NCBI GenBank assembly: GCA_965217585.1
Contig: OZ244561.1
Span: 576,001-640,000, forward strand
Source: Candidatus Latescibacterota bacterium
Lineage (GTDB): Bacteria > Latescibacterota > UBA2968 > UBA8231
Direction of reading: 5' to 3'
Length of the DNA: 64,000 nucleotides
The notes under the pieces were generated by a model. That model worked only from the letters and a program-made list of their open reading frames with translations, ran no database searches and was not told where the DNA came from. The stretch's first letter is position 1. Each line of letters starts with the position of its first letter. This document shows positions 32,841-51,926 of the stretch, one piece after another. Both the position numbers and the translations under genes were made by a program.

Positions 32841-33548
32841 ATGCAGAAAGCGCGTTGGGAAAAGGGCAACGTCAGCAACCTGATTTCGCTCGCCCTGTTG
32901 GTGGCGGGCCTCTGGGGGCGCGTTGAGGGCGTCGGCGGCAGCGAGTGGGTGTTGGCGGTTGGATTGTTTGGATTTGCCGGCGGGGCGACCAATTGGTTGG
33001 CAGTAAAGATGCTCTTCGACCGCGTGCCCCTGCTGTACGGATCCGGGGTGATTCCAGCGCGGTTTCGCGCCATCAGGGAAGCGGTCAAAGACGCCATCAT
33101 GCGCTACTTCTTCGACGAGGAATATCTAGAGCGATTCTTCGCCGAGCAGATGGCCGGCGAGGATGTCGGGGAAAAGGTGCAAACGGTGCTAGCGTCCGAT
33201 GAAGTTGACGCGATCATCGACCGCAAACTCGAAGAGTTGGCAGAATCGCCGCAAGGAATGATGATCCAGTTGGTGGGGACGCAGACGGTCAAGCCGCTGG
33301 TCAAGCAGTTCGTGATCGGGTTCGGGAGCGAGATTGCGCCGCTTTTGGCCGGCGGAGCGGGTACAGAAGTCAAAGCGATGCGGGCGCAGGTTGACGGACT
33401 GTTGGAGACCAAGCTAGAGGAACTGACACCCGACCGGGTCAAGGAGATGATGGAGGAAGTAATCCGCGAACACTTGGGCTGGCTAATCGTCTGGGGCAAT
33501 GTGTTCGGTGGCACTATTGGACTGTTATCTAAAGCACTGGGGTATTGA
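32841..33548 (+). CDS. DUF445-like membrane protein
   Basis: TNWLAVKMLF..GVIP and C-terminal HLGWLIVWGNVFGG. Confidence 0.75.
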   Translation: MQKARWEKGNVSNLISLALLVAGLWGRVEGVGGSEWVLAVGLFGFAGGATNWLAVKMLFDRVPLLYGSGVIPARFRAIREAVKDAIMRYFFDEEYLERFFAEQMAGEDVGEKVQTVLASDEVDAIIDRKLEELAESPQGMMIQLVGTQTVKPLVKQFVIGFGSEIAPLLAGGAGTEVKAMRAQVDGLLETKLEELTPDRVKEMMEEVIREHLGWLIVWGNVFGGTIGLLSKALGY

Positions 33549-33549
33549 A

Positions 33550-34356
33550 ATGAGTCAATGGAATTTGCGCGGCGAAGTAGCGGCAGTTATCGGTGGGACC
33601 GGCGTATTGGGCGGAGCGATGGCCCAGGGATTGGCCGAGGCCGGAGCCTCTGTAGCAGTGTTGGGACGAGACCACGACCGGGGGCATAAGCGAGTAGCGG
33701 CGATAGAGGCAGCAGGAGGCACGGGCGTTTTCGCCGCCTGCGACGCCACGGACAAAGCGTCGCTCAAGGCAGCCCATGAAGCGGTCGTCGCGGCATTGGG
33801 TCCCGTCAATGTGCTGCTCAACGCAGCCGGCGGCAATCAGCCGCAGGTGACCCTGAACGACGACCTAGACTTTGCCGCGATAACAACCGACGATTGGCAG
33901 CGCTGTTTCGACCTGAACTTGGGGGCTGGCGCGCTGTTGCCCTGCCAAGAATTCGGGTCGGCCATGGTCGCACGGGGCCGGGGCAGCATCATCAACATCG
34001 CCTCGGTTGCCGCCCACCTGCCGGTTTCGCGGGTGGTGGCGTACTCAGCGGCTAAAGCGGCTGTATTGAACCTAACGCAATTCCTCTCGCGGGAGTGGGC
34101 TGACAAAGGCGTGCGGGTCAACTCCATTACCCCGGGCTTCTTCCCCGCCGAGCAAAACCGCCGCTTGCTCTTTGAAGACGACGGCACCCCAACCGAACGC
34201 GGCCAACAAATCCTCTCCCACACCCCCATGGACCGCTTTGGCCGCCCCGAGGAACTGGTCGGCGCAGCGGTGTTCCTCGCATCGGACGCGGCCAGCGGCT
34301 TCGTCACCGGCACGGACATCCGCGTTGACGGAGGGTTTTTGGCGACGACGATCTAA
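33550..34356 (+). CDS. SDR oxidoreductase (D-mannonate oxidoreductase/gluconate 5-dehydrogenase-like)
   Basis: GGTGVLG, NAAGGN, YSAAK, VNSITPGFF, VDGGF. Confidence 0.9.
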   Translation: MSQWNLRGEVAAVIGGTGVLGGAMAQGLAEAGASVAVLGRDHDRGHKRVAAIEAAGGTGVFAACDATDKASLKAAHEAVVAALGPVNVLLNAAGGNQPQVTLNDDLDFAAITTDDWQRCFDLNLGAGALLPCQEFGSAMVARGRGSIINIASVAAHLPVSRVVAYSAAKAAVLNLTQFLSREWADKGVRVNSITPGFFPAEQNRRLLFEDDGTPTERGQQILSHTPMDRFGRPEELVGAAVFLASDAASGFVTGTDIRVDGGFLATTI

Positions 34357-34382
34357 AGAGCGGCGAGACGCCACGCTTTACA

Positions 34383-34613
34383 GTGAAGAAAAAAACATCA
34401 CAGTTTGCGATTTGTCTCAACAACGAGGGCTATGAGGCTTCTCTTGAAGTCGGAAAAGTGTATCGCGTACTTCCCGATCGGGAGGCCGCTGCGCACGGGT
34501 ACATTCGCATGGTGGATGAAAGTGGCGAAGATTACGCATTTGATGCCGACCGCTTTTACAAGATCGAATTCCCACCCCCGGTTGAAGCAACGCTAGATGC
34601 TGCTCTGCACTAG
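34383..34613 (+). CDS. Small hypothetical protein (76 aa)
   Basis: FAICLNNEGYEASLEVGKVY..VDESGEDY reads as a real small protein; function unknown. Confidence 0.65.
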   Translation: MKKKTSQFAICLNNEGYEASLEVGKVYRVLPDREAAAHGYIRMVDESGEDYAFDADRFYKIEFPPPVEATLDAALH

Positions 34614-34640
34614 GTTATCAGGCGGCTAGGAATATGGTCT

Positions 34641-34683
34641 CGGACATCCGCGTTGACGGAGGTTTTTGGCGACGACGATCTGA
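34641..34683 (+). repeat. Copy of the last ~44 nt of the SDR gene
   Basis: CGGACATCCGCGTTGACGGAGG-TTTTTGGCGACGACGATCT matches 34313-34356 with one G deleted and TGA in place of TAA. Confidence 0.9.
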
Positions 34684-34704
34684 GCTTCGATCACAGAAGC
34701 TTAA

Positions 34705-35121
34705 TCATGGAAATTTTCTGAAATATGTAGCTGATGCTTCATAGCCAATTGCCTTGTAAAACGCTTCAGCCCTTCGAGTTGCCAACGCGATCAATCTTGA
34801 ATTTCTCTCCTTAGCTTTCTTCTCAGCAATCTCCATGAGTCTTCTACCTATGCCTTGCTTCCGGCATTCATCTTCTACGAATAATTCCTCGACCCAACTC
34901 ACAGGACCATTGGCAAAAAAGGTCAGGTGGTGAAACACCAGAACATAGCCCTTAAGATCGGATTCGGATTCTGCCACTATCAGATCAACATTCTCATCTT
35001 TGATCAATCGCGAGAAGGAAGTTTCAAAGGAATGTGCGTCGATCTCAAAACTTGAGGCGAATTTCTTTACAAGAGTTAATAGCTGATCTTGATCTTGATC
35101 CATTGCTGTTCTATAGTGCAT
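34705..35121 (-). CDS. GNAT family N-acetyltransferase (cassette gene)
   Basis: VEELFVEDECRKQGIGRRLM, AFYKAIGY; low GC; ATG lies just after a GTTATAG core. Confidence 0.85.
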   Translation of the reverse strand: MHYRTAMDQDQDQLLTLVKKFASSFEIDAHSFETSFSRLIKDENVDLIVAESESDLKGYVLVFHHLTFFANGPVSWVEELFVEDECRKQGIGRRLMEIAEKKAKERNSRLIALATRRAEAFYKAIGYEASATYFRKFP

Positions 35122-35124
35122 TTT

Positions 35125-35253
35125 CTATAACTCCGAGCAAATACAGTTATATGCTATTTATGCGAAACGAAGGTACGTCTCTTGGTGCATAGTCGCAATC
35201 GCAACGAGCGACCGGATACGAGCCGACAAAGCCGTCCGGTCCTAGTGCGAGAG
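35125..35253 (-). promoter_or_regulatory. Cassette promoter/entry module, copy 1 (Pc-like promoter plus attI-like or collapsed-attC site)
   Basis: Minus strand TTGCGA(35198-35193)-17 nt-TACCTT(35175-35170), then ATATAAC-14 nt-GTTATAG; homologous to 44213-44314. Confidence 0.6.
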
Positions 35254-35522
35254 CGCGCGAGTGGGCCGACAAAGGCGTGCGGGTCAACTCCATCACCCCG
35301 GGCTTTTTCCCCGCCGAGCAAAACCGCCGCTTGCTCTTTGAAGACGACGGCACCCCAACCGAACGCGGCCAACAAATCCTCTCCCACACGCCCATGAACC
35401 GCTTTGGCCGCCCCGAGGAACTGGTCGGCGCAGCGGTGTTCCTCGCATCGGACGCGGCCAGCGGCTTCGTCACCGGCACGGACATCCGCGTTGACGGAGG
35501 GTTTTTGGCGACGACGATCTAA
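35254..35522 (+). pseudogene. Duplicated 3' 269 nt of the SDR gene
   Basis: Matches 34088-34356 with six substitutions counted by eye, five of them synonymous. Confidence 0.95.
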
Positions 35523-35561
35523 GACCACTTCCGCAGCAGCCGGAGGTAGAACAGCGGGTTG
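35523..35561 (-). repeat. Duplicated 3' end of the geranylgeranyl-reductase-family gene
   Basis: Minus strand encodes NPLFYLRLLRKWS*, versus NPLFYLRLLWK* at 44353-44389. Confidence 0.85.
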
Positions 35562-35611
35562 CCGGAGGCCAAGACGCTACAGGCACCGCAGCGCGAACCA
35601 TGCTGTTATTC
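35556..35611 (-). repeat. Truncated (half) attC-like site
   Basis: GGGTTGCCGGAGGCCAAG..CGCAGCGCGAACC-ATGCT-GTTATTC matches the right arms of the other sites; contains the stop codon of the adjacent methyltransferase. Confidence 0.75.
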
Positions 35612-36424
35612 GATGTCCCGCCTCTTCACAACAAGAAGAATGTGGCCACTCGCACCCAAGAGAGAGCGATCTCGATCGGTTCGGTCTATCATCTCGAGCA
35701 TGATAGCCCGTTGTCGCGGATCCGACCAAATTTGATCAAAATTCTGCCAAAACCACGCCACACCCTCGACGGCGATGTGATCCACAATCTGTAAATGTGC
35801 CTCCTCAGCTTCCCGTTCGATCTCATCCGGGTGGTGGAAATAGGCATCAGTAAAGTATCTGGTATTGTCCTTGTTGGGACGGTGGACACCTGTTTCTAAG
35901 TCTTGCCGCACAATATCCAGATATTCCGGATCCTCAAATAAGCCACTTATGAAACCATCGAACATCGACCCAAACCTCGAGATATATGCCACATACCCGA
36001 CCCCGTTGGGGGCAAGCCAATCGGCGACCTTCCGTAGCACTAGGCTGCGCTCGTTTGCATCGGTGAGATGGTACATGGGTCCCAAAAGTAGGACTACATC
36101 ATACTGCTGAGACTCAAGTTCGAGAGATCGTACATCGGCAGTTTCGATCCGAGAGAGCGGATTTGGCGCTTTCTTGTTGATCGACACGGCCTCTTCAACG
36201 TGGTTAGGCATCAAATCAAACAAGGCGACCTTGTGCCCCTTCTCGGCAAGCCAGAACGCGTACGGTCCAGATCCTCCACCAACGTCTACTATCGACAAAC
36301 CAGTTTCATCGGGGAGAAACTGCTCTATGATCTGTTTAGTGCGGAGGAATTCTAGCTCGCCCCGGCCACTGAAGAGACGTTGGCTCTCGTTCTTTCTGTT
36401 GTAATAGGTCGCTATTCGATCCAA
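35606..36424 (-). CDS. Class I SAM-dependent methyltransferase (cassette gene)
   Basis: VDVGGGSGPY, LLLGPMYHL; stop TAA lies within the TAAC core. Confidence 0.85.
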   Translation of the reverse strand: MDRIATYYNRKNESQRLFSGRGELEFLRTKQIIEQFLPDETGLSIVDVGGGSGPYAFWLAEKGHKVALFDLMPNHVEEAVSINKKAPNPLSRIETADVRSLELESQQYDVVLLLGPMYHLTDANERSLVLRKVADWLAPNGVGYVAYISRFGSMFDGFISGLFEDPEYLDIVRQDLETGVHRPNKDNTRYFTDAYFHHPDEIEREAEEAHLQIVDHIAVEGVAWFWQNFDQIWSDPRQRAIMLEMIDRTDRDRSLLGASGHILLVVKRRDIE

Positions 36425-36442
36425 TCAGCACCTCATCTGAGG

Positions 36443-36835
36443 CTATTCGTCGTGGGGCCTCTCAGCCATGAGTGCAAGGATGTTCATCTCGCTATCTCGA
36501 AAGAACGCCATCCACAACTCGTGGTCTTGAAGATCAGCAATCTTGTGAGGCCCTCCATCGAATGGCACGTTCCTACCCTTCAAAACCCGGTAGGCGTCAT
36601 GGATGTCGTCAACTCTGTAATACAGAACAGAGGAATGGATATCATCAGACTGCCCCTCCGGGATACTCAACATGAGGCGTACGCCTGAGCAATCAAAGAA
36701 CGCCATGTTCGGCACCCGAAACAGGAACTGCATTTCCAGTTGATCTCGGTAGAAGGTAACTGCCCTGTCGAGTTCCTTCACGGTGACAGATATTTGCCCT
36801 ATGGTCGATAGACCGAATCCACTATGCTGCGTCAT
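36443..36835 (-). CDS. VOC/glyoxalase/bleomycin-resistance family protein
   Basis: IGQISVTVKELDRAVTFYRD, AFFRDSEMN; GGAGG RBS before ATG 36835. Confidence 0.85.
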   Translation of the reverse strand: MTQHSGFGLSTIGQISVTVKELDRAVTFYRDQLEMQFLFRVPNMAFFDCSGVRLMLSIPEGQSDDIHSSVLYYRVDDIHDAYRVLKGRNVPFDGGPHKIADLQDHELWMAFFRDSEMNILALMAERPHDE

Positions 36836-36918
36836 TCTGGACCTCCTGTGGTGTGGGTTCAATAGCTGCTCCTACGAACCTAAACTACAGAATTCCTCGG
36901 CCGCAGACTTCTCTGAAA

Positions 36919-37791
36919 TCACCTTTTTGTTCTGCGGAATTGTCTCGGCGAGAGACCATAGTGCCGCCGAAAAAGCCAACTGAATGAACCAAGGCTTGCG
37001 AATCCGATTTCTAGGGCAATCTCTGTCACAGTCCGATCTGTAGTCTCCAATAGCCTGGCGGCTCGCTCCAGTCGCTTCATAACAAGATACTGGTGTGGGC
37101 TCTGACCGACTATCTGGCGAAATGTCCGCAGGAAGTGATTCGAGGAGAGACACGCCACCTTAGCCATCGCATCGAGGGAGATCGGCTCCGAGAGGGAGGA
37201 ACAGATATAGTCGCGAGCCATGTGGATGCGACGGTAAAGCTCCTTTCGCGTCGCCGCACGAACGGCCTCAACTGTCTCTACTTCCTTCAAAACCTGATGA
37301 TGTGCACTCAGAAGTCCAACCATCACCGCGTGCATCTGCTCCTCGACCCATCCAAGCTCTTCACTTCGCAGTGAGTACTCTGATCTGAACCGGCTCAGAG
37401 TCGGAGTCAGAACGCGATCCTGCGGGCGAGTGGTCTGGAAGAATTCCAACCGGCGCGACTGACGTGCTGGATCATCAAGAAGCTTGATAGCTCTAGAATT
37501 GATGGATGCGTAGACCTCCTCAGCAAATCCATCCCTGAAGAAGACACAAAATGACCCAACAATCGAAGGAGAGTCGATAGATACCGTGTATTCCTGTCCG
37601 TAATTCAGAATCAGATATGAATGCTCATCGACTTCGATCGCGTGATTGTCGATCTCATACTTTGCCGTGCCATTTGAGAATGACTTGACCGACAGACCTC
37701 CCTTGCCCGTCCACAGATGGTGTTTGCTGGCGGCATTCAGCACTTCGTTGGGGGCACCACTATCGTATGCAGGGCCATTCATGTCGATCAA
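36919..37791 (-). CDS. AraC family transcriptional regulator
   Basis: CLSSNHFLRTF..SPHQY and IALEIGFASLGSFSWLFRR..SPRQFR helix-turn-helix pair. Confidence 0.9.
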   Translation of the reverse strand: MIDMNGPAYDSGAPNEVLNAASKHHLWTGKGGLSVKSFSNGTAKYEIDNHAIEVDEHSYLILNYGQEYTVSIDSPSIVGSFCVFFRDGFAEEVYASINSRAIKLLDDPARQSRRLEFFQTTRPQDRVLTPTLSRFRSEYSLRSEELGWVEEQMHAVMVGLLSAHHQVLKEVETVEAVRAATRKELYRRIHMARDYICSSLSEPISLDAMAKVACLSSNHFLRTFRQIVGQSPHQYLVMKRLERAARLLETTDRTVTEIALEIGFASLGSFSWLFRRHYGLSPRQFRRTKR

Positions 37792-37834
37792 GGCATTCCC
37801 TCAGAGGCTTTTATGAGTTGGTTTTTTCCATTGC

Positions 37835-37928
37835 GGATAACGTTCTCGCCGTGCCCGAACCCCAAGCTTGTCGAGGGGTTGCCGGAGGCCAAGGCGCGAA
37901 GCGCCACAGTGCAAACACGGTGTTATAG
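37835..37928 (-). repeat. attC-like site (94 nt)
   Basis: GGATAAC...GTTATAG with internal AACCCC/GGGGTT, GCC-GGA-GGC and GGCGC-GAA-GCGCC hairpins. Confidence 0.8.
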
Positions 37929-38935
37929 GCTGTGGGAGATCCCGGCACTCTCCAGCAATTCGTCTCCCATCTCGATTCCTCGGTGTGGTAGGCGCATCAA
38001 CTCACCGTGGATATCAAAAGTCGAGAATGGAGGATCTGTGATTTTAGAACCCCACTTTCGGTAGAGGAAGCTGAGTCTATCTGCATAGTAGGCTGCCCAA
38101 ACCACCGGAACGCTCTTATTTCCGACTGAGATAGAGCTCTCCCCTCGTGATAGCCAAGCAATATCTCCCTCGCTTCCGCAACATTCAGCGGTCTAGATTC
38201 ACCCATAAGATCCCCCATTAACCACTGGTGACGCGTCATGACAAGATCCACCAAAGCTGGAGAAAACTCCCCGCTGCTGAAATCCGTGAACGCGACACAG
38301 CCAGTGCCGGCCCCGATCACATTACCTGCACGAACATCCCAATGGCAAAGGATCCAAGGGACGCTTGCGTCAAGAGCCGTTGCATGGCTGTTTTCCAGTA
38401 GTTGCGCTAATTCGTACACTGGCTGTGCGATTTCCGTATCAAGCCGACCGAGCGCGCTGGAAAGTCGATCTTGCGCCCAGCGGCGGACAGGTCGCTCGCG
38501 CACTGGCTGTTCCTGAAATAATCCGGCAGCATTATGAATGCTCGCAAGAACCTTGCCCGTCTTCTTCAGATAGTCGAGATGGCGAGAATCTAACGGCTGG
38601 CCTGGAAGTAGGCTCTCCAAGGAGACTGTATAGTCCCGATATGGAACTGAGAATTCGCCGTTAAGGGTTGGTACAATCTTGGGAACTGGTGCTCTCGAAG
38701 ATGAAAGGTGGTCCACAAATCGAACGATCAACTCTGGCGGCGAGGGACCATCCCACCCTGGATTGGTGCGAAGAACAGAATTTCCTTGCGCGCTGCGCAC
38801 AAAATGGACGTTCCTGGAAGTGGGCGTTTCTACTTGAACGGCTGCGACACCCCAGTGCTTCCAGAGAATGTCTGAAGCTTCCTCAGTCGTCACCATCGGT
38901 GACGTAGATTCTCGATCACGGGGGAATGAAGTCAT
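37923..38935 (-). pseudogene. APH/homoserine-kinase-II-like phosphotransferase, frameshifted near 38108
   Basis: LASIH, HWDVRAGN (HGD expected), FTDF; coding-like sequence VWAAYYADRL..SL* continues in another frame to a stop inside the attC core at 37923. Confidence 0.65.
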
Positions 38936-40178
38936 GACTCTTACTGTTTTTGCGAAACTGGCGTTGTAGTATTTTCCACAAGGGGTTCATTCCTCGTGGC
39001 TTGAATTGCTCGGGATCTTTGCCCTGTTCGACAGCTTGCCAATAATGCCAACCCATCTTGTGACTCGATGCGATTTCATAATCTAACCCCGTCCATGATC
39101 CATCACCGCGAAAGGCGTAAAACGACCAATGCCAACCTTGGCTGTTATAGATTTCTATTAGGTCGCTCAGGTAGGCCGCAGCGCCTTCGAGCCGGCGGTC
39201 GTACCAGAATTCTGAAGCTATGATTCGGTGAGAAGGTATCTCATATCGCTCAGAAAACCGCTGCACCGCGTTGATCTCCTCCGCAAGACGATCGATAGTC
39301 CACGACTCTATAGGACCGTTCCACCACTTCGGAACTCGGTCTGGATAGGCGTACCGGTCCTTATTGGCTCGATAAGTCACCATCTGCCACGGACCGGGGT
39401 TGTGAAAAGCGTACAACACTTTGTCATCATCTACAGGGCGATTGAAGTCGAACGCTTGAGGAGCGGCATAGAACCAGCCATCGAGCATGATGGGCGTATC
39501 TGCGTCTACTGAACGGATGGATTCGACCATCCGCTGGTTAAATCGGTTGAGGTCAGCTGGCGTATTCTGGATGTCCTGAAACCATTGGCTGAAATTCTCG
39601 TCCGGTTCTGCAAAACCGAATACCTTCTCTGGATGTGGTTCATTGAGAGGGTTGTAAGCCACGATTGCAGGATGCTTTTCCAAACGCATTGCTAACTGAC
39701 GCCAGAAATTGAAGGCTTGCTTATGGTAGCTTTCGTCACGCCAGAGCCGGCCATCATCTTGGTTCTCATTCAGCTGCTTCCAGCGTCCACCGGGCAAGCT
39801 GGCCATCGCAAGGACAACTTTGATACCATTGCTCTCGGCTTCATTGAGTGCTTCTACCAACAGGGCTAGATCGGTCTCATTGATTGCTGCGAAATTATCT
39901 GCGTTGCCGATTAGGAAGTCTCTATTATCGGCGGGCCATGCATCGGGTAAAATCCGAACATAATCCAGTCCCAGTTCACCTGCCGCCCTGTACCACTCAG
40001 GACGATGTCGCTCGTTTTGCTGATTAGCTCCCTTACGCTGCTTTTCCCAAAAGCCAATCTTGGGAGCATCGGCCATAACGCCGCTGGTGAAGCACAAAAT
40101 AGATATCATTGAAACTATGTATCTATAAATACCCCGTTGCCGCCCTTCTTTACGACCGTTTCCGTTCCTAATAAGCAT
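38916..40178 (-). CDS. Glycoside hydrolase family 5 (cellulase-like); start may be 40109
   Basis: YNPLNEPHPE acid/base motif, YAFH, IIASEF nucleophile, WHWSFYAF. Confidence 0.8.
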   Translation of the reverse strand: MLIRNGNGRKEGRQRGIYRYIVSMISILCFTSGVMADAPKIGFWEKQRKGANQQNERHRPEWYRAAGELGLDYVRILPDAWPADNRDFLIGNADNFAAINETDLALLVEALNEAESNGIKVVLAMASLPGGRWKQLNENQDDGRLWRDESYHKQAFNFWRQLAMRLEKHPAIVAYNPLNEPHPEKVFGFAEPDENFSQWFQDIQNTPADLNRFNQRMVESIRSVDADTPIMLDGWFYAAPQAFDFNRPVDDDKVLYAFHNPGPWQMVTYRANKDRYAYPDRVPKWWNGPIESWTIDRLAEEINAVQRFSERYEIPSHRIIASEFWYDRRLEGAAAYLSDLIEIYNSQGWHWSFYAFRGDGSWTGLDYEIASSHKMGWHYWQAVEQGKDPEQFKPRGMNPLWKILQRQFRKNSKSHDFIPP

Positions 40179-40201
40179 CTGTGCTTTATGGCTTCACGTT
40201 C

Positions 40202-40273
40202 CTGTAACGTTTCAGGGTTTGCGAACCCCGAAGGGATTGCCAAGGCCAAGCCGCCGCAGTTCGCTCTAAACTT
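40202..40273 (-). repeat. Degenerate attC-like site (right GTTA core missing)
   Basis: CTGTAAC-GTTTCAG-GGTTTGCGAACCCCGAAGGGATTGCCAAGGCCAAG.. shares its left arm with the sites at 42919 and 43582. Confidence 0.7.
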
Positions 40274-40276
40274 CAA

Positions 40277-41000
40277 TCAGGCTTTCTTCCTGCGAAATGC
40301 CAAAGCAGTTTCGTAGTGCTTGGTGATCGATCCTCCGTAGTTCTTGTTTATCAGGTCAGCGATGCCGTCAAATAGATGCGTGCGATTGAATTCGGGCAGC
40401 GCGATATGGTCAGAATAGGTGCCAATGAGTTTGATGTACTGTTCCGCAGAATAGTTCGCTGTCCATGCGTACACTCGGTGGATAGGATCGGCAAAAGCAG
40501 TAGTTCCAGGTTCTGGGGACTCTGATGTCGTCGGAGTACTGGGATCCCGAGGGGAATCTGAAACTACATAATGCTTGCTATAAACTTCCTGGACTTCCGC
40601 AAAGAAACCTTCGTCTTTTCTTACGTGTTGGTTGGAGAAGATGGCCAATGATCCCCTAGCCTTCAGGGTGTCACGGGCTCTAATGAATCTGACTCTTGGA
40701 CTCACCCAGCGGAATGCAGTCGCGGAGATCACAAGGTCAAACTTGCTAGCCGAGTCCCAATCTGCGAAAGGACACAGGACGAAGCGAACGTTCTTGTAGT
40801 TGTTGAGTCGCGCCCGCGCAACCTCGATCAAATCTTGGCCAATATCCAAACAGGTCATTTCGCAACCGAGGGTAGCAAATAATCTCGAAGCCTGTCCGAT
40901 TCCACACCCGACTTCCAGGATTTTTCCGCTCCTATCGATTCCGGACGTCATAGAGCGAGGCAATGGTATTGAAAGTAGTTCTGAGATCAGGGCGGGGCAT
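40277..41000 (-). pseudogene. Class I SAM methyltransferase with a frameshifting lesion near its N-terminus
   Basis: ATG 41000 gives MPRPDLRTTFNTIASLYD and then goes out of frame with SGIDRSGKILEVGCGIGQA..SATAFRW. Confidence 0.65.
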
Positions 41001-41025
41001 TAGAATTCCCATGACACGCAAACGC

Positions 41026-41790
41026 CTATGATGGCAGGGCGATTGCCTTGGCAATCAAGAGTGTCGGCACTATGCTTTCTCGACGCCTCTCCACCAAGTC
41101 TGCTACAGAATCAAGCGGTTCAGAGATCTCGGCAAGTTGGAATCCACTTCTGATCAAGGTATTGAAGTACGTTGAAAGCGTTCGGTGGTGGCTACCAAGC
41201 GTGCCACACATCCCGATTCCATCCGAGTACCATTTGCCTTCAAGGCCATACCGTGAAACACGCAATGCCTTGAAATTTCCCTCTTCGTCAAACTCCTCCT
41301 GTGGATTCTCTGCATTGAACGGAGGGAAAAGGCACGGATGAAGAATTGTGAAGATGAACTTGCCATTGTCGAGAAGTATCCGACGGACATTGAACAATGT
41401 TGCCGTTAGGTCAGGGATATCCATGAGTGCCATGTTGCAAGTAACGGCATCCATGCTGGCGTCGGACACCTGATTCAGCGATTGTGCATCGTCCAGGACA
41501 TAGGTGATGCCGTGGTCAGCAGAATGCTCCTTTGCATGCCGCAGCAGCATCTGTGAAATATCAACACCCGTAACGAGAGCACCTCGACTCGCTAGGATGC
41601 GAGACAGATACCCTTCACCGCATCCCAAGTCACATATACTGGTCCCTTGGACATCGCCCAGCATAGTCAGCATGACTTCTACCGAGGGCTGGATACGCCT
41701 ATTCCTATCCGGAACATTCCTATCCAGCCAGTTGAGATAGAAATCACCTACCTTGTCATATTCAGAATCTGCCACCTCATCGATTCCCAT
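41026..41790 (-). CDS. Class I SAM-dependent methyltransferase
   Basis: CDLGCGEG, CNMALMDIPD, ILHPC, HRTLSTY. Confidence 0.85.
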   Translation of the reverse strand: MGIDEVADSEYDKVGDFYLNWLDRNVPDRNRRIQPSVEVMLTMLGDVQGTSICDLGCGEGYLSRILASRGALVTGVDISQMLLRHAKEHSADHGITYVLDDAQSLNQVSDASMDAVTCNMALMDIPDLTATLFNVRRILLDNGKFIFTILHPCLFPPFNAENPQEEFDEEGNFKALRVSRYGLEGKWYSDGIGMCGTLGSHHRTLSTYFNTLIRSGFQLAEISEPLDSVADLVERRRESIVPTLLIAKAIALPS

Positions 41791-41869
41791 GGTATCAGTC
41801 CCGTTGGGACACGGGATCTTCGACCGTCCAAGCTACGCGTTATAAAACAAGTGACCTTTCCCAGCGACA

Positions 41870-41985
41870 TATAGCAATCCTGAATGACTTGAACGATTAG
41901 AGCTGCGGATCGTCTTGTGCATACTATTCTGTGTCCATCTGCGTCCATCTGCGGATTATCTTATGAATGATTTAGGATTGCTATA
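41870..41985. mobile_element. MITE-like element (~116 bp) with terminal inverted repeats and TA ends
   Basis: Left end TATAGCAATCCTGAATGA, right end TGATTTAGGATTGCTATA (reverse complement TATAGCAATCCTAAATCA); internal 10-nt repeats GTGTCCATCT/GCGTCCATCT/GCGG. Confidence 0.7.
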
Positions 41986-42018
41986 TCACATTATTCTCTG
42001 CATTTCTGATTCAATTTC

Positions 42019-42072
42019 AGCTAACGTTTTCGCCATGCCCGAACCGCGAAGCCAGGCACGGACGTGTTATGT
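42019..42072 (-). repeat. Short attC-like site (54 nt)
   Basis: AGCTAAC-GTTTTCG-CCATGCC...GGCACGG-ACGT-GTTATGT. Confidence 0.75.
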
Positions 42073-42091
42073 GAAGTGCACTATTTCCCTC

Positions 42092-42886
42092 TTAGTCTAC
42101 GAAGTCATGGATCCTTTGATACACGCTCAACTTGGCCTGATCCAATTCTTGCCCATACTCCCGGAAAAACAAGGGAACCCACTCACCACCCAGATTTCTG
42201 CGAATCGTGTTGTACGCGGCGACAAAGTCGAGATAGCGATCTCCTATTCCTGCATAACCCCAATCAATGTAGCCACTCAGGTGGCCATTGACGATCATGA
42301 CGTTGGGAAGGCAATAATCCCCGTGGGTGAACACCACGTCTTCTGGCGGCAGGTCGGCTCGTATGCTTGCCAGTTCATCCCGCAGGACATTTCTAGTGCC
42401 GCCTTTGGGGATCTGACCATCCAGCACTCCTGAATCAATCAGGTCTGTCGCCCACGCAAAATAGCGTTCAAAGCGCCAATCCAATGGGCACGAATCAACT
42501 GGAATTGCGTGAATCTCGCGAAGTCCATGAGCGAACATACGTATTAGACCTGGGGTATCTGTCTTGGCGTCTTCGTGGACACCAGAGACGCCAGCGATTC
42601 GGGTCATCAGCAGATACTGAGTATTGTTTTCCTCGTGGAAGCAGACCACGCTAGGCACACTCAGTTTGTCGTGCAACCAAGACATCGCCGCTTTTTCGGC
42701 GCGAAGATCAGATTCTTGCGGCGCAGCGAGCGCATCTCTGATTTTGAGGAACAAACTCTGCTTGCTCGGGTGAGTAAATGAGAATACATCGGCGCACGAT
42801 TCAGTCCTGAGGTTGTCGCCATTTGAGGCGAAACCCTTCAGATGGGCTTGGACCGGATCTGGTAGATCTTGGACTATCAACGTCAA
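42092..42886 (-). CDS. Aminoglycoside 3'-phosphotransferase (APH(3'))-like protein, cassette gene
   Basis: LFLK, YLLMTRIAG, IHAIPVDSCP, VFTHGDYCLPNV, GYIDWGYAGIGDRYLD. Confidence 0.85.
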   Translation of the reverse strand: MTLIVQDLPDPVQAHLKGFASNGDNLRTESCADVFSFTHPSKQSLFLKIRDALAAPQESDLRAEKAAMSWLHDKLSVPSVVCFHEENNTQYLLMTRIAGVSGVHEDAKTDTPGLIRMFAHGLREIHAIPVDSCPLDWRFERYFAWATDLIDSGVLDGQIPKGGTRNVLRDELASIRADLPPEDVVFTHGDYCLPNVMIVNGHLSGYIDWGYAGIGDRYLDFVAAYNTIRRNLGGEWVPLFFREYGQELDQAKLSVYQRIHDFVD

Positions 42887-42918
42887 CCTGCGTTCGAGGA
42901 TTGCCTAAAATTCATTTC

Positions 42919-43010
42919 ACATAACGGTTCTCCGGTTTGCGAACCCCCGGAGGGGGTTGCCCGAAGGGCCAATCCGCGAATGTGCCGCAGCGTAAACTGC
43001 GCTGTTAAAT
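42919..43010 (-). repeat. attC-like site (92 nt)
   Basis: ACATAAC-8 nt-GGTTTGCG...CGTAAACT-5 nt-GTTAAAT with AACCCCC-GGA-GGGGGTT and GCCC-GAA-GGGC hairpins. Confidence 0.85.
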
Positions 43011-43043
43011 GACGTGGGCCAATCCGCGGCAAGATATAACGGG

Positions 43044-43550
43044 CTAAACCTCCTCGGCGAAGTCCGATGAGAGAGCTCCCCGAAATCCAATGCGTTTGTG
43101 CGGATCTCTATATTGAGTCAATTCGTGATGTCCGATCATGAAGCCTTGGGACTTCCAGAACGTCAGGGCGCTCGGATTGTCGCGGCGTACATTCAAGTCA
43201 ATCCGATCGATACCCAAGCCGTCGGTGATTTCCGTTACGGCTTGTACAAGGAATGACCCAATGCCCTCCCGGCGTTGCGCAGGAATAACGTAGAAGTCAT
43301 TGATCTTCGCGCTAGTGCCACTAATTGAAAATGAAACAAATCCAACTGGGGACCCTTCGCTGAGGCACCAGAAAATCCTTGGTTCCGGACTGGAAAGGGG
43401 AAACCGATCTGCGAAATACACATCGCGGCGATCCGATGAACGTACTGTATCAGCAGTTGGCATTGTCTCCAACCAGTAGGCATCAACCAGTGGCCGAAAC
43501 CTATTCTCATCGGAAGGAAGCACCTGCTCGAATTCAAGGCGAACGCTCAA
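43044..43550 (-). CDS. GNAT family N-acetyltransferase (cassette gene)
   Basis: FYVIPAQRREGIGS, NPSALTFWKSQGF. Confidence 0.85.
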   Translation of the reverse strand: MSVRLEFEQVLPSDENRFRPLVDAYWLETMPTADTVRSSDRRDVYFADRFPLSSPEPRIFWCLSEGSPVGFVSFSISGTSAKINDFYVIPAQRREGIGSFLVQAVTEITDGLGIDRIDLNVRRDNPSALTFWKSQGFMIGHHELTQYRDPHKRIGFRGALSSDFAEEV

Positions 43551-43581
43551 AACTCATTTCCTCTCACATAAGACCCATGTC

Positions 43582-43675
43582 ATTTAACGTTTTCACGGTT
43601 TGCGAACCCAAGAAGCGAGTTGCCCGTAGGCCAAGCCGCCTGAAGGGCGGCGCAGCGCGAGCCGAGCCGTTATAG
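43582..43675 (-). repeat. attC-like site (94 nt)
   Basis: ATTTAAC-8 nt-GGTTTGCG...CGCGAGCC-5 nt-GTTATAG with internal hairpins. Confidence 0.85.
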
Positions 43676-43685
43676 GACGTGTGTT

Positions 43686-44126
43686 CTACTTACGAGCTTC
43701 CATTAAATGTAGCAGTAAGTCGATCTTGTCGTCATAATTGGCGACAAGTTTGGGAAGTGCTCTGACATCGGCCCAAAAGAAATCGAATGGATGGACTATC
43801 GATCCGTCCTCCGCGTATTCTCCATGGCACCAGTTGTCCTTTGTTGGTCCTTCTACAGACAAATGAAAGAACCAGCGGTACTGTAGTTCATCGGTCCCGC
43901 AATCCCGCATGTCCCGGGTATCCTGGGCCAGGAACTGCTCATATCTGAGATCGGACAACCCGGTTTCCTCTTCTGCTTCCCGCATCACGGCATCCTGGGG
44001 ATTCTCTCCGGGCTCAATCGTTCCGGCTGGAACTTGAATGCCAGCTTCCGGTGCCTCGGGTTGAGTAAAGAGGAGCAGGCGGCTCCCGTTGGTGATATAG
44101 GCGTAAGCTCTGTGCCGGATTTTCAT
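43686..44126 (-). CDS. NUDIX hydrolase (first cassette gene)
   Basis: GTIEPGENPQDAVMREAEEETGL Nudix box. Confidence 0.9.
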   Translation of the reverse strand: MKIRHRAYAYITNGSRLLLFTQPEAPEAGIQVPAGTIEPGENPQDAVMREAEEETGLSDLRYEQFLAQDTRDMRDCGTDELQYRWFFHLSVEGPTKDNWCHGEYAEDGSIVHPFDFFWADVRALPKLVANYDDKIDLLLHLMEARK

Positions 44127-44170
44127 CTCAATTGGAGAACTATGAAGTCACAGTGTTTGTTTCTCATGTC

Positions 44171-44314
44171 CTATAACTGCTTGCACCCGAACAAGTAGTT
44201 CGGGTAACGGCCGCTAGATGCTATTTATGCGCAACGAAGGTATATCTCTTGGTGCATAGTCGCAATCGCAACGAGCGGCTGAGCGGACAAGGCCGTCCGG
44301 TCCCCGTGCGAGAG
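44171..44314 (-). promoter_or_regulatory. Cassette promoter/entry module, copy 2
   Basis: Minus strand TTGCGA(44265-44260)-17 nt-TACCTT(44242-44237), then the hairpin ACCCGAAC/GTTCGGGT and a GTTATAG core at 44177-44171. Confidence 0.6.
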
Positions 44315-44339
44315 CGCGGGAGTGGGCCGACCAAGGCGT
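44315..44339 (+). repeat. 25-nt remnant of the SDR gene starting at the same breakpoint as the 35254 copy
   Basis: CGCGGGAGTGGGCCGACCAAGGCGT versus CGCGGGAGTGGGCTGACAAAGGCGT at 34088. Confidence 0.8.
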
Positions 44340-44352
44340 TCTGAGACCGTGC

Positions 44353-45594
44353 CTACTTCCACAGCAACCGGAGGTAAAACAGCGGGTTGGTCAACACCTT
44401 GCGCGGCACGGCGTCGGCCATCATGCCGCAGATCAGGTCGCTGACCTCGGCGTTTTTGGCGGCCTTGCGAATGACCAAGTTCATCAGATAGGGCCAGCAG
44501 CCCAAATTGTGCAGCTTGGTGCTCAGCTTCAGCTCGCTGCCCAGCGCATCCCACAGCCGATCCTCGTAGCGCCGCAAAAAGCCAGCCGAATAATCCCCCG
44601 CCTCCCGGGCCTGAGTTGCAGTCTCCACGGCAAAGCGGGCCGAGTACAGAGCATTGCCAATGCCCTCGCCCGTGAACGGGTCAATCAGGCCGGCTGCGTC
44701 GCCCAAGAGCAAAAAGCCGTTGCCGTGCGCCGGTCGCCGCCGCGAGCCAACCGGCAAGTTCCAGCCGACCGGGGCTTCGAGGGGACGGGCGTCGCGAAAG
44801 CGCGCGCCAAAGGTCGTACTCGCCACTGCGGCTGCGAGCGCGTCCTTGAGATCGATGCCGCGCGCCTTGATATCTCGGTGATCCATGCCGATGCCGACAT
44901 TGGCGCGGTTGCCCTCTAAAGGAAAGATCCAAAAATACCCGGGCCGCACCTCGTCTATAAAGTGCAATTCTATCTGATCGCTCAGGTCCGCCACGCCCCC
45001 GAAGTACTGCCGCAGAGCCACCATCCAATCGCGGCCCTCGTGGCGGTATAATCCGCTCTTGCGGGCGACGATCGAATTAAAGCCATCGCACCCTAACACC
45101 AAGGGCGCGCGAAATTCCAAGCGCGTGCCATCGGCTGTACGCCCCCGCACCCCGCAGACCTGCTCGCCTTCTCTCAGGAGATCGCGCACGTTAAAACCCT
45201 CTACGGTATGGGCGGCTGCGGCCTGCGCCTTGGCAAAGAGAAAGTCGTCGAAGACCTCGCGGCGGATGACAAAGCCCTCCATCGGCAGCACCCGACCAGT
45301 CAGGGCGTTGTGCAGATCGTAGCTGCTCAGGTCAATGGACGCGGCGGTCGCGTCTGGGCTGCCGAAGACAATACGGGCAACGGTCGCCCCAGGCAGATTG
45401 CACACCTCCTCGAAAAGCCCCAGATCGTGGAGGATGGCCACCGTCTTGCCAGAGAGGGCGTCGCCGCAGATCTTGTCGCGGGGGAAGCACTGCTTGTCCA
45501 GCAGCAGAGCCGCCAGCCCGTGACGCTGCGCATACAGCGCGGCCGTGGCACCAGCCGGACCGCCGCCGACGATAATTAGGTCGTAGGTTTGCAC
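44353..45594 (-). CDS. Geranylgeranyl reductase family FAD-dependent oxidoreductase
   Basis: GGGPAG, FPRDKICGD, GYFWIFP, GDAAGLIDPFTGEGI. Confidence 0.9.
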   Translation of the reverse strand: MQTYDLIIVGGGPAGATAALYAQRHGLAALLLDKQCFPRDKICGDALSGKTVAILHDLGLFEEVCNLPGATVARIVFGSPDATAASIDLSSYDLHNALTGRVLPMEGFVIRREVFDDFLFAKAQAAAAHTVEGFNVRDLLREGEQVCGVRGRTADGTRLEFRAPLVLGCDGFNSIVARKSGLYRHEGRDWMVALRQYFGGVADLSDQIELHFIDEVRPGYFWIFPLEGNRANVGIGMDHRDIKARGIDLKDALAAAVASTTFGARFRDARPLEAPVGWNLPVGSRRRPAHGNGFLLLGDAAGLIDPFTGEGIGNALYSARFAVETATQAREAGDYSAGFLRRYEDRLWDALGSELKLSTKLHNLGCWPYLMNLVIRKAAKNAEVSDLICGMMADAVPRKVLTNPLFYLRLLWK

Positions 45595-45715
45595 GTGGCC
45601 CAGAAAATAGTCCGTCCAGCCCTCGCTACAAGGGCGCAGGCCGAACTTGCTTTGTAGATGATCTTCCTTACATTTTCGGTTTTGTCAACGCAATCGCCAA
45701 AGGAGCCACAACGCG

Positions 45716-47614
45716 ATGTCCGAAGACGTCCACACCGAAAATCCACAAGTCGAAAAACGGGCTTTTCAAACCGAGGTCCAACAGGTACTGCACCTGCTGG
45801 TCCATTCGCTGTACACCCAAAAAGAAATTTTCTTGCGCGAGCTGATCTCCAATGCCTCAGACGCGCTGGACAAAATTCACCACCGCTCGCTGACCGACCG
45901 CAATATCCGCGACCCCGACGCCGAATTGGACATTGAGCTCGAGGTGTCGAGCAGCAACAAGACCCTGACCATCCGCGACCGGGGGATCGGCATGACCCGC
46001 GACGAGGTCAATGAGAATATCGGCACCATTGCCCGCTCCGGCTCGGCTGAGTTTACCGCCAAGCTGGCCGACGCCGACGATGAGCAAGAGAAGCTCAAAC
46101 TGATCGGCCAATTCGGGGTGGGCTTCTACTCGGTCTTCATGGTGGCCGACCGAGTGGTGCTCACCACGCGCTCGGCCGACCCAGAAGCCGACGGGGTGCT
46201 GTGGGAATCCACCGGCGACGGGGCCTACACCCTATCCCACGCCGACAAGGCCGACCGCGGCACCGAGATCAAGCTCTACATCCGTTCGGACTGCGAGGAA
46301 TTTCTCGATGCCCACCAGCTAGAGGCCATCATCCGCAAGCACTCGGATTTTGTCGCGTACCCCATCAAGGTCGCCGGCAAACAGGTCAACGACACGGCCG
46401 CGCTGTGGACCCGGCCGCGCAACGAAATTACTCCCGAACAATACAACGAGTTTTACACGCACCTGACCGGCGACCCCGACGAGCCACTCGCGTCCGAGCA
46501 CATCGTCGTGGATGTGCCGATCCAATTCTACGCCGTGCTCTACATTCCCAAGCGCGCACCGGTCCAATGGCTGCACGCAGAGCCGACGATCTCGCTCAAC
46601 CTGCACGTCGCACGGGTTTTTATCCAAGACGACTGCAAGGAGCTTTTGCCGCTGTGGCTGCGCTTTGTGCGCGGCGTGGTTGACTGCGACGACCTGCCGC
46701 TCAACGTCTCGCGCGAAACCCTCCAGCAAAATCCCATCATCACCAAAATCCGCGCCACCTTAGTCCGGCGCATCATCGGCATGTTGGAGGGAATGGCGAA
46801 GAAGGATGAAGAGCAGTACATGGCCTTTTGGCACGCCTGCGGCACCATCCTCAAAGAGGGCGTGGCCACCGATGCCGCGCACCAAGCCCAGCTCGCCAAG
46901 CTCCTGCGCTACCGCTCCTCGCTAGCCGACGACGACACGCCCTACATTTCGTTGCAGAACTACGTCGATCGGATGCAGAGCGAGCAGGACAAGATCTACT
47001 ACCTCGCCGGCGAGAACAAAGAGGCCATCGCCCAAAGCCCCCTGTTGGAGGCCTTCCGCAAGCGCGGCATAGAGGTGCTCTACTTCGACGAACCGGTCGA
47101 TGAATGGGTCATCCAAGGGCTGCAAAAGTTCGCCGACAAAGAGTTTGCGGGCGTGGATGCGGCCGAGCTGAACCTGGACGAGGATGCGGTCAAGTTGGAA
47201 GGGGTCGACGATCAGAAGGCCGAAGCCATCGAGCTGCTCGCCTTTCTCAAGCAGAAGCTCGCCGGCCGGGTCGAGGACGTGGTCGAGTCCAAGCGGCTGA
47301 CCGACAGCCCCTGCCTGCTAGTCGCCAGCCAAGGCGGCTTGAGCCGCAACATGGAGCGGCTGATGAAAATGACCGATCGCGAATTCAAAGGATCACTGCG
47401 CACGCTAGAAATCAATCGCCAACACCCGATCATCCGCAACATGGCCGCCGTACTCAAGCGCGACCGCGACTCCGAGCAATTGGCGAACTGGGCCCATTTT
47501 CTGGTTGATTTCGTATTGTTAGGCGAGGGCACAGTCGAGGATCCACAGCGGCTGAGCCAGAGCTTGCAGTCCATCATGGGAGCGGCCACCGCGCATGCCG
47601 CCGAGGAGAGTTAG
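45716..47614 (+). CDS. htpG: Chaperone HtpG (Hsp90)
   Basis: IFLRELISNASDA, IGQFGVGFYS, LPLNVSRE. Confidence 0.95.
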   Translation: MSEDVHTENPQVEKRAFQTEVQQVLHLLVHSLYTQKEIFLRELISNASDALDKIHHRSLTDRNIRDPDAELDIELEVSSSNKTLTIRDRGIGMTRDEVNENIGTIARSGSAEFTAKLADADDEQEKLKLIGQFGVGFYSVFMVADRVVLTTRSADPEADGVLWESTGDGAYTLSHADKADRGTEIKLYIRSDCEEFLDAHQLEAIIRKHSDFVAYPIKVAGKQVNDTAALWTRPRNEITPEQYNEFYTHLTGDPDEPLASEHIVVDVPIQFYAVLYIPKRAPVQWLHAEPTISLNLHVARVFIQDDCKELLPLWLRFVRGVVDCDDLPLNVSRETLQQNPIITKIRATLVRRIIGMLEGMAKKDEEQYMAFWHACGTILKEGVATDAAHQAQLAKLLRYRSSLADDDTPYISLQNYVDRMQSEQDKIYYLAGENKEAIAQSPLLEAFRKRGIEVLYFDEPVDEWVIQGLQKFADKEFAGVDAAELNLDEDAVKLEGVDDQKAEAIELLAFLKQKLAGRVEDVVESKRLTDSPCLLVASQGGLSRNMERLMKMTDREFKGSLRTLEINRQHPIIRNMAAVLKRDRDSEQLANWAHFLVDFVLLGEGTVEDPQRLSQSLQSIMGAATAHAAEES

Positions 47615-51534: not shown

Positions 51535-51550
51535 TTTCTTACCGCGTTCC

Positions 51551-51802
51551 TCAGCCTCCGGCTTTAGACACAAGAATGGACAAATGAACCCACATAGCGG
51601 CGATTATGGTCATTATGCCCAAAATTCCGACAACTAGTCGGTTATTGGTCTCCTTGTTGGCATCGGCTATAACCTTCCGCAGCTCGGCCATGTCTTGCCT
51701 GTGGGCGTCCTCAAAACGGTCTAACTGCTTTGATACCTGTCTAAATTCTCCCCGCATTTCGCTTTGTTGTTCCCTAATATCGGCTTGGGTTTGCTCGGTC
51801 AT
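51551..51802 (-). CDS. Small coiled-coil protein with C-terminal transmembrane helix
   Basis: GGAG RBS before ATG 51802; amphipathic N-terminus followed by LVVGILGIMTIIAAMWV; lower GC. Confidence 0.6.
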   Translation of the reverse strand: MTEQTQADIREQQSEMRGEFRQVSKQLDRFEDAHRQDMAELRKVIADANKETNNRLVVGILGIMTIIAAMWVHLSILVSKAGG

Positions 51803-51926
51803 GGCGTAGTCTCCTGTGGCTTGGGTTTCGCCGTCCTGCTCGGCAAGCAAATATCTAAGGGGCTTTACGACCTAAAGGCTTAGAGGTAAGATAGGAAATC
51901 AACCCTACTATCAACAGGAGAACGCC

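Follow-up and report, generated by a model that had tools for sequence, protein, structure and literature searches.

The stretch of DNA analysed here (the window) comprises 64,000 nucleotides (nt) of the genome of Candidatus Latescibacterota bacterium, an uncultured sponge-associated bacterium whose 7.32-Mb genome is assembled in a single contig and is referred to below as G000. Small shares of the stretch are also carried by sponge and marine metagenomes. The locus studied is the junction between two convergent host genes, which encode a short-chain dehydrogenase (SDR) and a FAD-dependent, geranylgeranyl-reductase-like oxidoreductase (GGR). In G000 a putative integron-type cassette array lies between them, interspersed with copies of the 3' ends of both host genes (Table 1), and both genes are full length despite the inserts. 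For comparison, 31 genomes of the genus were used, G000 counted in (relatives are coded G001 onward). SDR orthologues with 91-99% identity were found in 24 of these genomes and GGR in all 31. GGR, which is read in the same direction as the cassettes, scores 26.9 bits against GGR_cat, slightly below the cut-off of 27. Starting from SDR, the order in G000 is SDR, a unit with a small open reading frame (ORF), the SDR-end copy tail44, a GNAT cassette with the module M1, the SDR-end copy s269b with the GGR-end copy g35, ten cassette genes with the module M2, a remnant, and GGR.

Table 1. Positions of genes, gene-end copies and repeats at the SDR-GGR locus of G000, in window coordinates.
Feature	Position	Strand	Remarks
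SDR, short-chain dehydrogenase, intact	33547..34356	+	Pfam adh_short_C2, E 1.5e-48; last 269 nt (34088-34356) form the resident copy s269a
Small-ORF unit	34357..34640	+	76-aa ORF 34383-34613; directly after SDR stop
tail44, copy of last 42-44 nt of SDR	34641..34683	+	97.6% over 42 nt; TGA replaces TAA
GNAT acetyltransferase cassette gene, first (SDR-proximal) unit	34705..35121	-	Pfam Acetyltransf_10/7/1
Module M1	35148..35253		core 35148-35217 and 36-nt linker x40 (35218-35253) joining SDR sequence
s269b, copy of last 269 nt of SDR including TAA	35254..35522	+	97.8% to 34088-34356
Decayed spacer GACC and g35 (35527-35561), copy of last 35 nt of GGR	35523..35561	-	91% to 44355-44389
Truncated putative attC of last cassette	35554..35612	-	fused to g35 over 8-nt microhomology GCGGGTTG (35554-35561); full-length form in G001, G021
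Second array unit, ten ORFs	35606..44126	-	ORF list, Pfam
Five complete attC-like sites	37832-37929, 40199-40272, 42016-42073, 42916-43011, 43579-43676		3' of ORFs; repeat features
Module M2, array head	44165..44314		boundary ctataac 44171-44177; palindrome/hairpin 44184-44206; core 44215-44277; x40 44278-44314
s25 (44315-44339), then TCTGA (44340-44344) and spacer GACCGTGC	44315..44352	+	s25 92% identical
GGR, FAD-dependent oxidoreductase, geranylgeranyl-reductase-like, intact	44353..45594	-	Pfam FAD_binding_3, E 1.1e-19

The 3' end of SDR occurs four times in G000: in the intact gene, as a copy of 42-44 nt, as a copy of 269 nt (97.8%) and as a 25-nt remnant. A repeat search paired 34088-34356 with 35254-35522 at 98% identity (97.77% by BLAST) and found the last 24-27 nt of SDR repeated three times (34313/34334, 34641/34661 and 35479/35500). 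Whole-genome BLAST over the 7.32 Mb located SDR pieces nowhere outside this locus. The four occurrences reported in a preliminary description of the window were confirmed, and the repetition of gene ends is not due to chance. The same description had the 269-nt copy running straight into a copy of the GGR end, and this was borne out by the 35 nt of g35. Together, s269b, the spacer and g35 would represent a fossil of an ancestral SDR><GGR abutment. The overlap of the two stops at 35520-35526 had been taken for that ancestral junction; this did not hold, as a real empty site in G025 reads TAA-CGC-CTA without overlap, and the overlap in G000 results from decay in which the GGR stop mutated and one base was lost. 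An identical spacer variant (GACCA) and the same joint were found in G012, and the left end of the array of G013 is SDR-CGC-g37.

On the GGR side, s25 matches the 269-nt SDR segment over its initial 25 nt and TCTGA represents the last bases of an SDR end, and the spacer GACCGTGC matches the right ends of G010, G002, G028 and G019. Since TCTGA and the spacer follow s25, the stretch 44315-44352 is a remnant of the same module-plus-SDR-end unit from which ~240 nt were deleted internally. On the SDR side, tail44 bounds the small-ORF unit on the right as a direct repeat, and the joint between the small ORF and this tail is common to G000 and G005. The sequence of the small-ORF unit also follows the SDR stop in G001, G010, G002, G012, G011, G019, G029, G005 and G003; its 76-aa ORF matched no Pfam family.

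The array itself has a GC content of ~50-54%, compared with ~60-64% in the flanks. The ten ORFs of its second unit were assigned by Pfam to a methyltransferase, a glyoxalase, AraC, an APH-like protein, GH5, two methyltransferases, APH, GNAT and NUDIX, and second-unit blocks are common to relatives at 94-99% identity. The GNAT cassette of the first unit has no homologue in the arrays of relatives; a cassette boundary, GTTATAG, lies beside its gene at 35130-35124. Contigs of the sequencing runs X19 and X20 span 34583-35180, i.e. the end of the small ORF, tail44, the GNAT gene and the beginning of M1; those of X19 show no difference and those of X20 show one. The five complete attC-like sites are 58-98 nt long, have a conserved 3' half and lie directly 3' of five ORFs, and TAAC...GTTA inverse cores are visible in four of them. 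An Rfam scan of 33000-46000 with E values up to 1 gave no match, and a MAFFT alignment of the five sites was not structurally consistent. An nhmmer profile of their 3' halves recovered the five input sites, one more in G000 and four in relatives, and is too narrow for mapping the arrays of relatives. With five complete and one truncated attC-like repeat and no intI within a few kb, the region is, judged by these features, an integron-type minus-strand cassette array without integrase, i.e. a cluster of attC sites lacking integron-integrase (CALIN). A near-identical copy of the GNAT cassette 43044-43550 (97.8% in an 89-nt alignment, with the match extending into the gene) is present in a second array of G000 (C1:4303072-4303772), where it has a longer attC and different neighbours. 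The segment 36437-37919, comprising the glyoxalase, AraC and an attC, is present in G000 and G001 and missing, with identical end points, in G012, G029, G003, G002 and one X19 contig; these end points do not coincide with the canonical attC GTT.

An integron integrase scoring over the cut-off was found in none of the 31 genus genomes. The best match to TIGR02249 in G000 scored 84 bits, where 265 is the cut-off, and is located at a great distance from the window; no intI adjoins the array as in a complete integron, and neither intI nor a recognisable intI pseudogene was present at the locus in any genus genome. The absence of a linked integrase, proposed from the letters alone, is hereby confirmed in G000 and across the genus set. 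In the family, 9 of the 61 genomes sampled encode an integron integrase. Matches to the tyrosine recombinase family PF00589 numbered 19 in five genomes (3-4 each), none of them inside arrays and all far from them, and no match to recombinase families was obtained among the ten array ORFs, the first-unit GNAT and the small ORF. Homologues of ComEC and DprA are present in G000; since most control genomes have members of these families too, their presence says little about competence. In the divergent G015 a split intI in two frames (251 and 161 bits) lies at a contig start (C156:6-886).

The SDR><GGR junction is a genus-wide insertion hotspot. In the 21 contiguous SDR-GGR loci (G000 and 20 relatives), the distances from stop to stop are 3, 155, 460, 461, 1044, 1164, 1213, 2045, 3386, 3716, 3722, 3779, 4759, 5279, 5318, 5778, 9615, 9996, 11378, 11653 and 14572 nt. 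A true empty site is present in G025, which reads ...GATCTAA-CGC-CTACTTCC... with both genes intact and 3 nt apart. One relative with abutting stops and many relatives with different cassette sets at the same junction, both anticipated in the preliminary description, do exist. Internal copies of the SDR end were found in nine of the 21 loci (G000, G001, G010, G013, G012, G027, G019, G007 and G004) and also in both split loci examined (G029 and G005). These copies measure 12, 25, 30-33, 42-44, 51-54, 61, 69, 251, 269 and ~350 nt. Copies of the GGR end were found in G000 (35 nt), G013 (32-37 nt), G004 (17 nt), G012 (12 nt) and G015 (a second copy, residues 351-412). In the two split loci, each in a single-contig genome, SDR and GGR are 610 kb (G029, C1:2933330-2934136 versus 3543573-3566000) and 927 kb (G005, C1:2078642 versus 3006128) apart with array sequence next to GGR, suggesting that large rearrangements broke the locus within the array. 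A scan of genome contigs with SDR returned 80 loci, all of which, except those of three close relatives, were distant SDR homologues. Two observations on divergent relatives are added here. The second copy of the GGR 3' end in G015 stands behind the GGR gene (C109:4924-6380), and the 155-nt spacer of G017, a member of a divergent subclade, holds a strong GC-rich hairpin resembling a bidirectional terminator, where G025 of the core clade has only 3 nt.

A module, M, heads the arrays. Its two copies in G000 (35148-35253 and 44215-44314) are 95% identical over a 60-nt core and 85% over 106 nt; in the repeat search 35148-35210 matched 44215-44277 at 94% and 35220-35278 matched 44281-44339 at 90%. 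M was located at the GGR-proximal array head in G001 (three copies), G010, G013, G002, G012, G029, G003 and G021, and also at other loci in at least seven genomes. At the SDR-GGR locus M stops at ...CCAGAT, where it is fused to SDR, whereas elsewhere ~110 further nt are conserved. In 19 aligned copies, conservation runs through the palindrome up to ...AAGCAGTTA (GTTA), beyond which each copy is followed by a different cassette. Pairing within the palindrome is kept by two-sided changes in 12 cells versus 6.5 expected, a value reached by one of 500 shuffles, and slid controls were much lower; three stem positions show CG, UA or UG across the 19 copies. These changes point to a hairpin under selection at 44184-44206, and not to a fixed binding sequence for a protein. 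From its position and the GTTA boundary, M is predicted to be attI-like. Regions upstream of intI in six family genomes showed no similarity to M beyond chance, and neither M nor attC sites of this type occurred in ~10 kb beside intI in three of these genomes and 2 kb in a fourth. M had been described as a promoter module beside both long breakpoints. It is a real repeat there, but at most a putative promoter: a scan of both copies for sigma-70 promoters gave no site inside M, and one plus-strand site at 35089-35117, inside the GNAT gene, was at shuffle level. A third core copy in G000, of the long form (C1:3327728-3327790), lies upstream of a minus-strand gene beside a transposase-like ORF. 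At least seven genomes of the genus have the long form at loci other than SDR, with variable sequence beyond it.

The joints at both ends of the arrays allow the founding insertion to be reconstructed in part. The simplest, founder-like layout is that of G013: SDR-CGC-g37-truncated attC, cassettes, then M-tail54-CGC-GGR. Its joint between the GGR end and the truncated attC is the same as the g35/attC joint of G000 (35554-35561), and the microhomology GCGGGTTG is found in the GGR end and also midway along the intact attC form of G001 and G021. The joint lies mid-attC and was not made at an attC crossover point. At the opposite end, the breakpoint between M-x40 and SDR (SDR position ~538-543) is identical in both copies of G000 and both copies of G029, a different species, and the shared module/SDR breakpoint at ~34088 postulated earlier does recur there twice. 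It is most simply read as one junction that was inherited or transferred, not as a target site. M-tail54, found in G001 (three copies), G010, G013 and G012, has the same M end as the x40 form, and a ~255-nt deletion would explain it. Target duplications accompany other inserts as well: 44 nt at the small-ORF unit (common to G005), ~72 nt in G007 and 32 nt across the ends of both genes in G004. The marks of illegitimate insertion, namely microhomology at a new joint and flanking duplication of the target, are thus both present, the former at a single reconstructable joint. The mid-attC joint in G013 and G000 and the single M/SDR breakpoint together suggest that a piece of an array was inserted once, with ~307 bp of target duplicated. 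The piece, running from mid-attC to the head module M, would have been inserted by illegitimate, microhomology-type joining, and the duplicated target would have consisted of 269 nt of SDR, the spacer and 35 nt of GGR, which would have kept both genes whole. Illegitimate or template-switch insertion and the integration of circles carrying the junction piece both fit the target duplications.

How two units came to stand in tandem is, in our judgement, best explained by such a founding insertion followed by stacking of unlike arrays by recombination anchored in homology, an explanation that we hold to be somewhat more probable than not. After the founding event, the SDR-end copy closing an array next to M would serve as a later homology anchor. 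An ectopic RecA-type crossover between this copy and the genuine SDR end in front of a different array, most probably carried by DNA of a related strain, would concatenate the arrays head to tail and strand the donor's junction of SDR end, spacer and GGR end mid-array. Later deletions would trim the copies from 269 to 54 to 25 nt and from 35 to 12 nt. The reciprocal crossover would remove an array precisely, and empty sites may be ancestral or restored. A crossover between array-closing and genuine SDR ends would place behind an internal SDR end the sequence that in other loci comes after a complete SDR gene, and exactly this was observed. Internal SDR ends are followed by the small-ORF leader in unit b of G001, the 251-nt copy of G012 and both copies of G029, and by the spacer, the GGR end and the truncated attC in G000 (35520-35612) and G012. 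A third context, in which the stop is followed by GCT, occurs three times and stands apart from this pattern.

The content of the units agrees with this reconstruction. The two units of G000 have no cassette in common, and each of their x40 variants is better matched by a copy in G029 than by the other. Between G000 and G001 the cassette blocks are 97.4-98.7% identical, compared with 94-95% for most flanks (single pieces 92% and 85%); between G000 and G012, G029 or G010 the blocks are ~95% identical and the flanks 86-93% (G012 86-92%). Cassette blocks thus resemble each other across species more closely than the core genes beside them do, which fits exchange between species. In addition, s269a and s269b differ at six positions, five of which are synonymous and one of which is D229N; at least five synonymous changes out of six have a probability of 0.005 under random change. 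Each of the six b-alleles is also present elsewhere among the SDR-end sequences of the genus (6 to 24 of 27), and one SDR fragment of G029 is closest to the SDR of G028 (97.8%, versus 94.8% to that of G029 itself). A pseudogene drifting for equally long should carry many more, random changes; older SDR-end copies are decayed (G012, 90% with frameshifts; second copy of G029, 93%; G005, 86-90%). With its few and mainly synonymous differences, s269b looks like a young, gene-like copy of a recently functional allele, and at least one of the two copies must have left a working gene recently. The earlier count of five synonymous differences in six stands, but the claim that both alleles were functional was too strong, since all that the bias demonstrates is divergence of one copy or more within a functional gene. 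Stacking by homology-anchored recombination, also put forward earlier, fits the contexts of the internal SDR ends, the unlike modules, the gene-like s269b and the similarity of the cassette blocks.

Several points weigh against this explanation. Internal SDR copies are absent from 12 of the 21 contiguous loci, the founding mechanism was deduced from one reconstructable microhomology joint, and the 36-nt linker x40 has no assigned source in the founding model. The attC calls rest on sequence features and not on the covariance model of IntegronFinder, and the bottom strands of the five attC sites, folded as DNA, did not clearly surpass shuffles (z +0.54 to -2.23). Among the run contigs shown, none spans M1-s269b-g35-attC, so the linkage of the two units depends on the single-contig assembly. 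The internal joint shared by G000 and G012 may mean that the stacking event is old or was transferred and did not take place recently in G000. A donor of s269b in another strain is suggested by the substitution pattern alone, and s269b is nearest to the SDR end of G000 itself (97.8%) and not to that of another species. At four of the six differing sites s269b has the majority allele of the genus and the resident gene the minority allele; these four differences look derived in the resident gene, a pattern that an old duplication in situ with gene conversion could yield.

Such a duplication in situ would involve unequal crossover between sister chromatids, pairing the SDR end with an array-borne SDR end, and would double the array within one lineage. 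The halves would have diverged through gain and loss of cassettes, gene conversion would have kept s269b close to the resident gene, and no foreign DNA would be required. The geometry of the crossover is the same as in homology-anchored stacking and the same junctions are predicted, and both the proximity of s269b to the resident SDR end and the distribution of majority alleles would be expected. M1 and M2, however, share no more than 85% identity and differ in their x40 variants, for each of which G029 has the better match, and the two units are without a common cassette. The lack of any homologue of the first-unit GNAT in the arrays of relatives, and cassette blocks that are more alike between species than their flanks, also argue against an origin within one lineage, which we regard as unlikely.

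We consider it improbable that the architecture is an assembly chimera, in which the assembler crossed between the simple arrays of two strains through the shared 269-nt SDR sequence. The genome is metagenome-assembled, and the runs in which the stretch was found are metagenomes holding several variants, or coded organisms. A path via the shared SDR end would produce exactly the observed order, s269b resembles a functional allele, and among the run contigs shown none bridges either 269-nt copy. The four runs compared with 33400-45000 consist of short-read Logan contigs only, and such contigs break at the 269-nt repeat. On the other hand, a repeat of just 269 nt is short relative to long reads in a 7.3-Mb single-contig assembly, and the same kind of internal junction is found in three further single-contig genomes (G012, G001 and G029). 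Many copies are decayed, with frameshifts, 83-93% identity and internal deletions, and so are not strain alleles, and no joint between an SDR end and a full GGR end was reported in the four runs. A weak hint in the same direction is that contigs specific to one or the other unit have similar depth in each of these runs (11.6/11.3, 7.5/10.7, 9.3/9.1 and 46.8/47.8). Several joints in run contigs with short sides (34007>35274, 34196>35615, 42972>43585 and 42926>44215) were uninterpretable and hence not used. A scan of metagenome contigs for the motif of the internal joint yielded 13 stretches, none of them homologous to the SDR-GGR locus.

The preliminary description had also offered site-specific insertion at 34088 and compared the units with the element e14 in icd. 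Elements of this type insert in the 3' end of a gene, bring a replacement end and accrete in tandem. Applied to the present locus, a tyrosine recombinase acting in trans would insert a module with its cassettes at one fixed site within the 3' end of SDR, supply a replacement gene end and let units accrete in tandem. As in e14-type elements, direct repeats of the target-gene 3' end flank and separate the stacked units, and the target genes are intact; the M/SDR breakpoint recurs in G000 and G029, and the M-tail54 joint in four genomes and in run X23. Unlike in such elements, the repeat varies from 12 to ~350 nt without a common core or fixed att site, the ends of both convergent genes are duplicated and the cargo is an attC cassette array. 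All recurrent joints have the same sequence context, which is what a single junction passed on by inheritance or transfer would show. Neither the units nor their surroundings were found to encode a site-specific recombinase: there is no integrase in or beside the arrays, and the 3-4 tyrosine-recombinase matches per genome in the five genomes searched are all distant. The opposite junction is a microhomology joint inside attC. Given the variable breakpoints, the absence of a recombinase gene from the five arrays tested and the 8-nt microhomology, e14-like insertion at 34088 is therefore not supported, and we consider it decidedly improbable. Insertion by an integron integrase acting in trans at secondary, attG-type sites in the SDR and GGR ends is very improbable indeed: integron integrases have been reported to insert at non-att genomic sites (10.1101/2022.09.11.507474), 9 of the 61 family genomes encode one and an SDR fragment of G012 abuts a cassette within 2 nt of the GTTA boundary, but such insertion does not duplicate hundreds of target bases, the g35/attC joint is mid-attC and not at GTT, and none of the 31 genus genomes has an IntI above the cut-off. 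Nor did the reconstructed joints fall regularly on the attC GTT with a GNT-type target.

Among known systems, the locus is closest in layout to CALINs. It shares with them co-oriented short ORFs, each followed by an imperfect palindrome with TAAC/GTTA inverse cores, the usual cassette functions (GNAT, methyltransferases, glyoxalase, APH and NUDIX) and the lack of intI nearby or genome-wide. It differs in that the array of G000 is bounded and internally punctuated by 3'-end copies of both flanking host genes, and in its readable microhomology founding joint and its two unlike, concatenated arrays. CALINs at conserved loci, with the same locus used across species, have been reported in Xanthomonas (10.1101/2025.06.18.660453). 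The origins proposed for CALINs include loss of the integrase, rearrangement, insertion at secondary sites and insertion sequence (IS) elements, and in a survey from 2016, 95% of CALINs had no intI pseudogene nearby (PMC4889954). Like the sedentary chromosomal integrons of Xanthomonas, which lie downstream of ilvD (10.1101/2025.06.18.660453), the locus has a conserved position, cassettes that vary between species and a conserved head region; unlike them, it is without intI or an intI pseudogene throughout the genus, and M does not resemble the regions upstream of intI in the six family genomes. Cassettes are also acquired from transformed DNA into chromosomal arrays via IntI acting on attC sites (PMC12614218). 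Horizontal DNA would be the source of cassette change in both cases, but here the proposed anchors are the ends of host genes and the proposed enzyme system is general homologous recombination. In the literature surveyed, no array interrupted by end copies of the two genes beside it and no such founding joint of a CALIN was found.

How clusters of attC sites arise far from any integrase is largely unexplained, and at the present locus founding joints are still readable. Although none of its genomes has an integron integrase above the cut-off, the members of the genus differ widely in the cassettes that they carry at this one junction. If the homology-anchor explanation holds, arrays can spread, grow and get lost by ordinary recombination, which would bear on the movement of accessory genes in uncultured symbionts and on the interpretation of CALINs in genome surveys. 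The locus also calls for caution with metagenome assemblies, in which a false join at a shared gene end would give an identical architecture. A further-reaching proposal is put forward tentatively, with the balance tilted against it: integrase-less arrays could be mobile units at the level of whole arrays, with homology arms of their own in the form of the terminal copies of both host-gene 3' ends. General homologous recombination could then insert such an array at the SDR><GGR junction of a related genome, stack it behind one already resident or excise it precisely, so that an empty site is restored, and M would be an orphaned platform that travels with each unit. If this were true, recombination would in this genus take over the role that the integrase plays for single cassettes and extend it to whole arrays.

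Two further differences between G000 and its relatives were noted in the right flank. At ~51540-51910, ~370 nt have no counterpart in five relatives, and at ~53700-53725 G001 has ~12.5 kb of extra sequence. These spots may be further variable sites near the hotspot.

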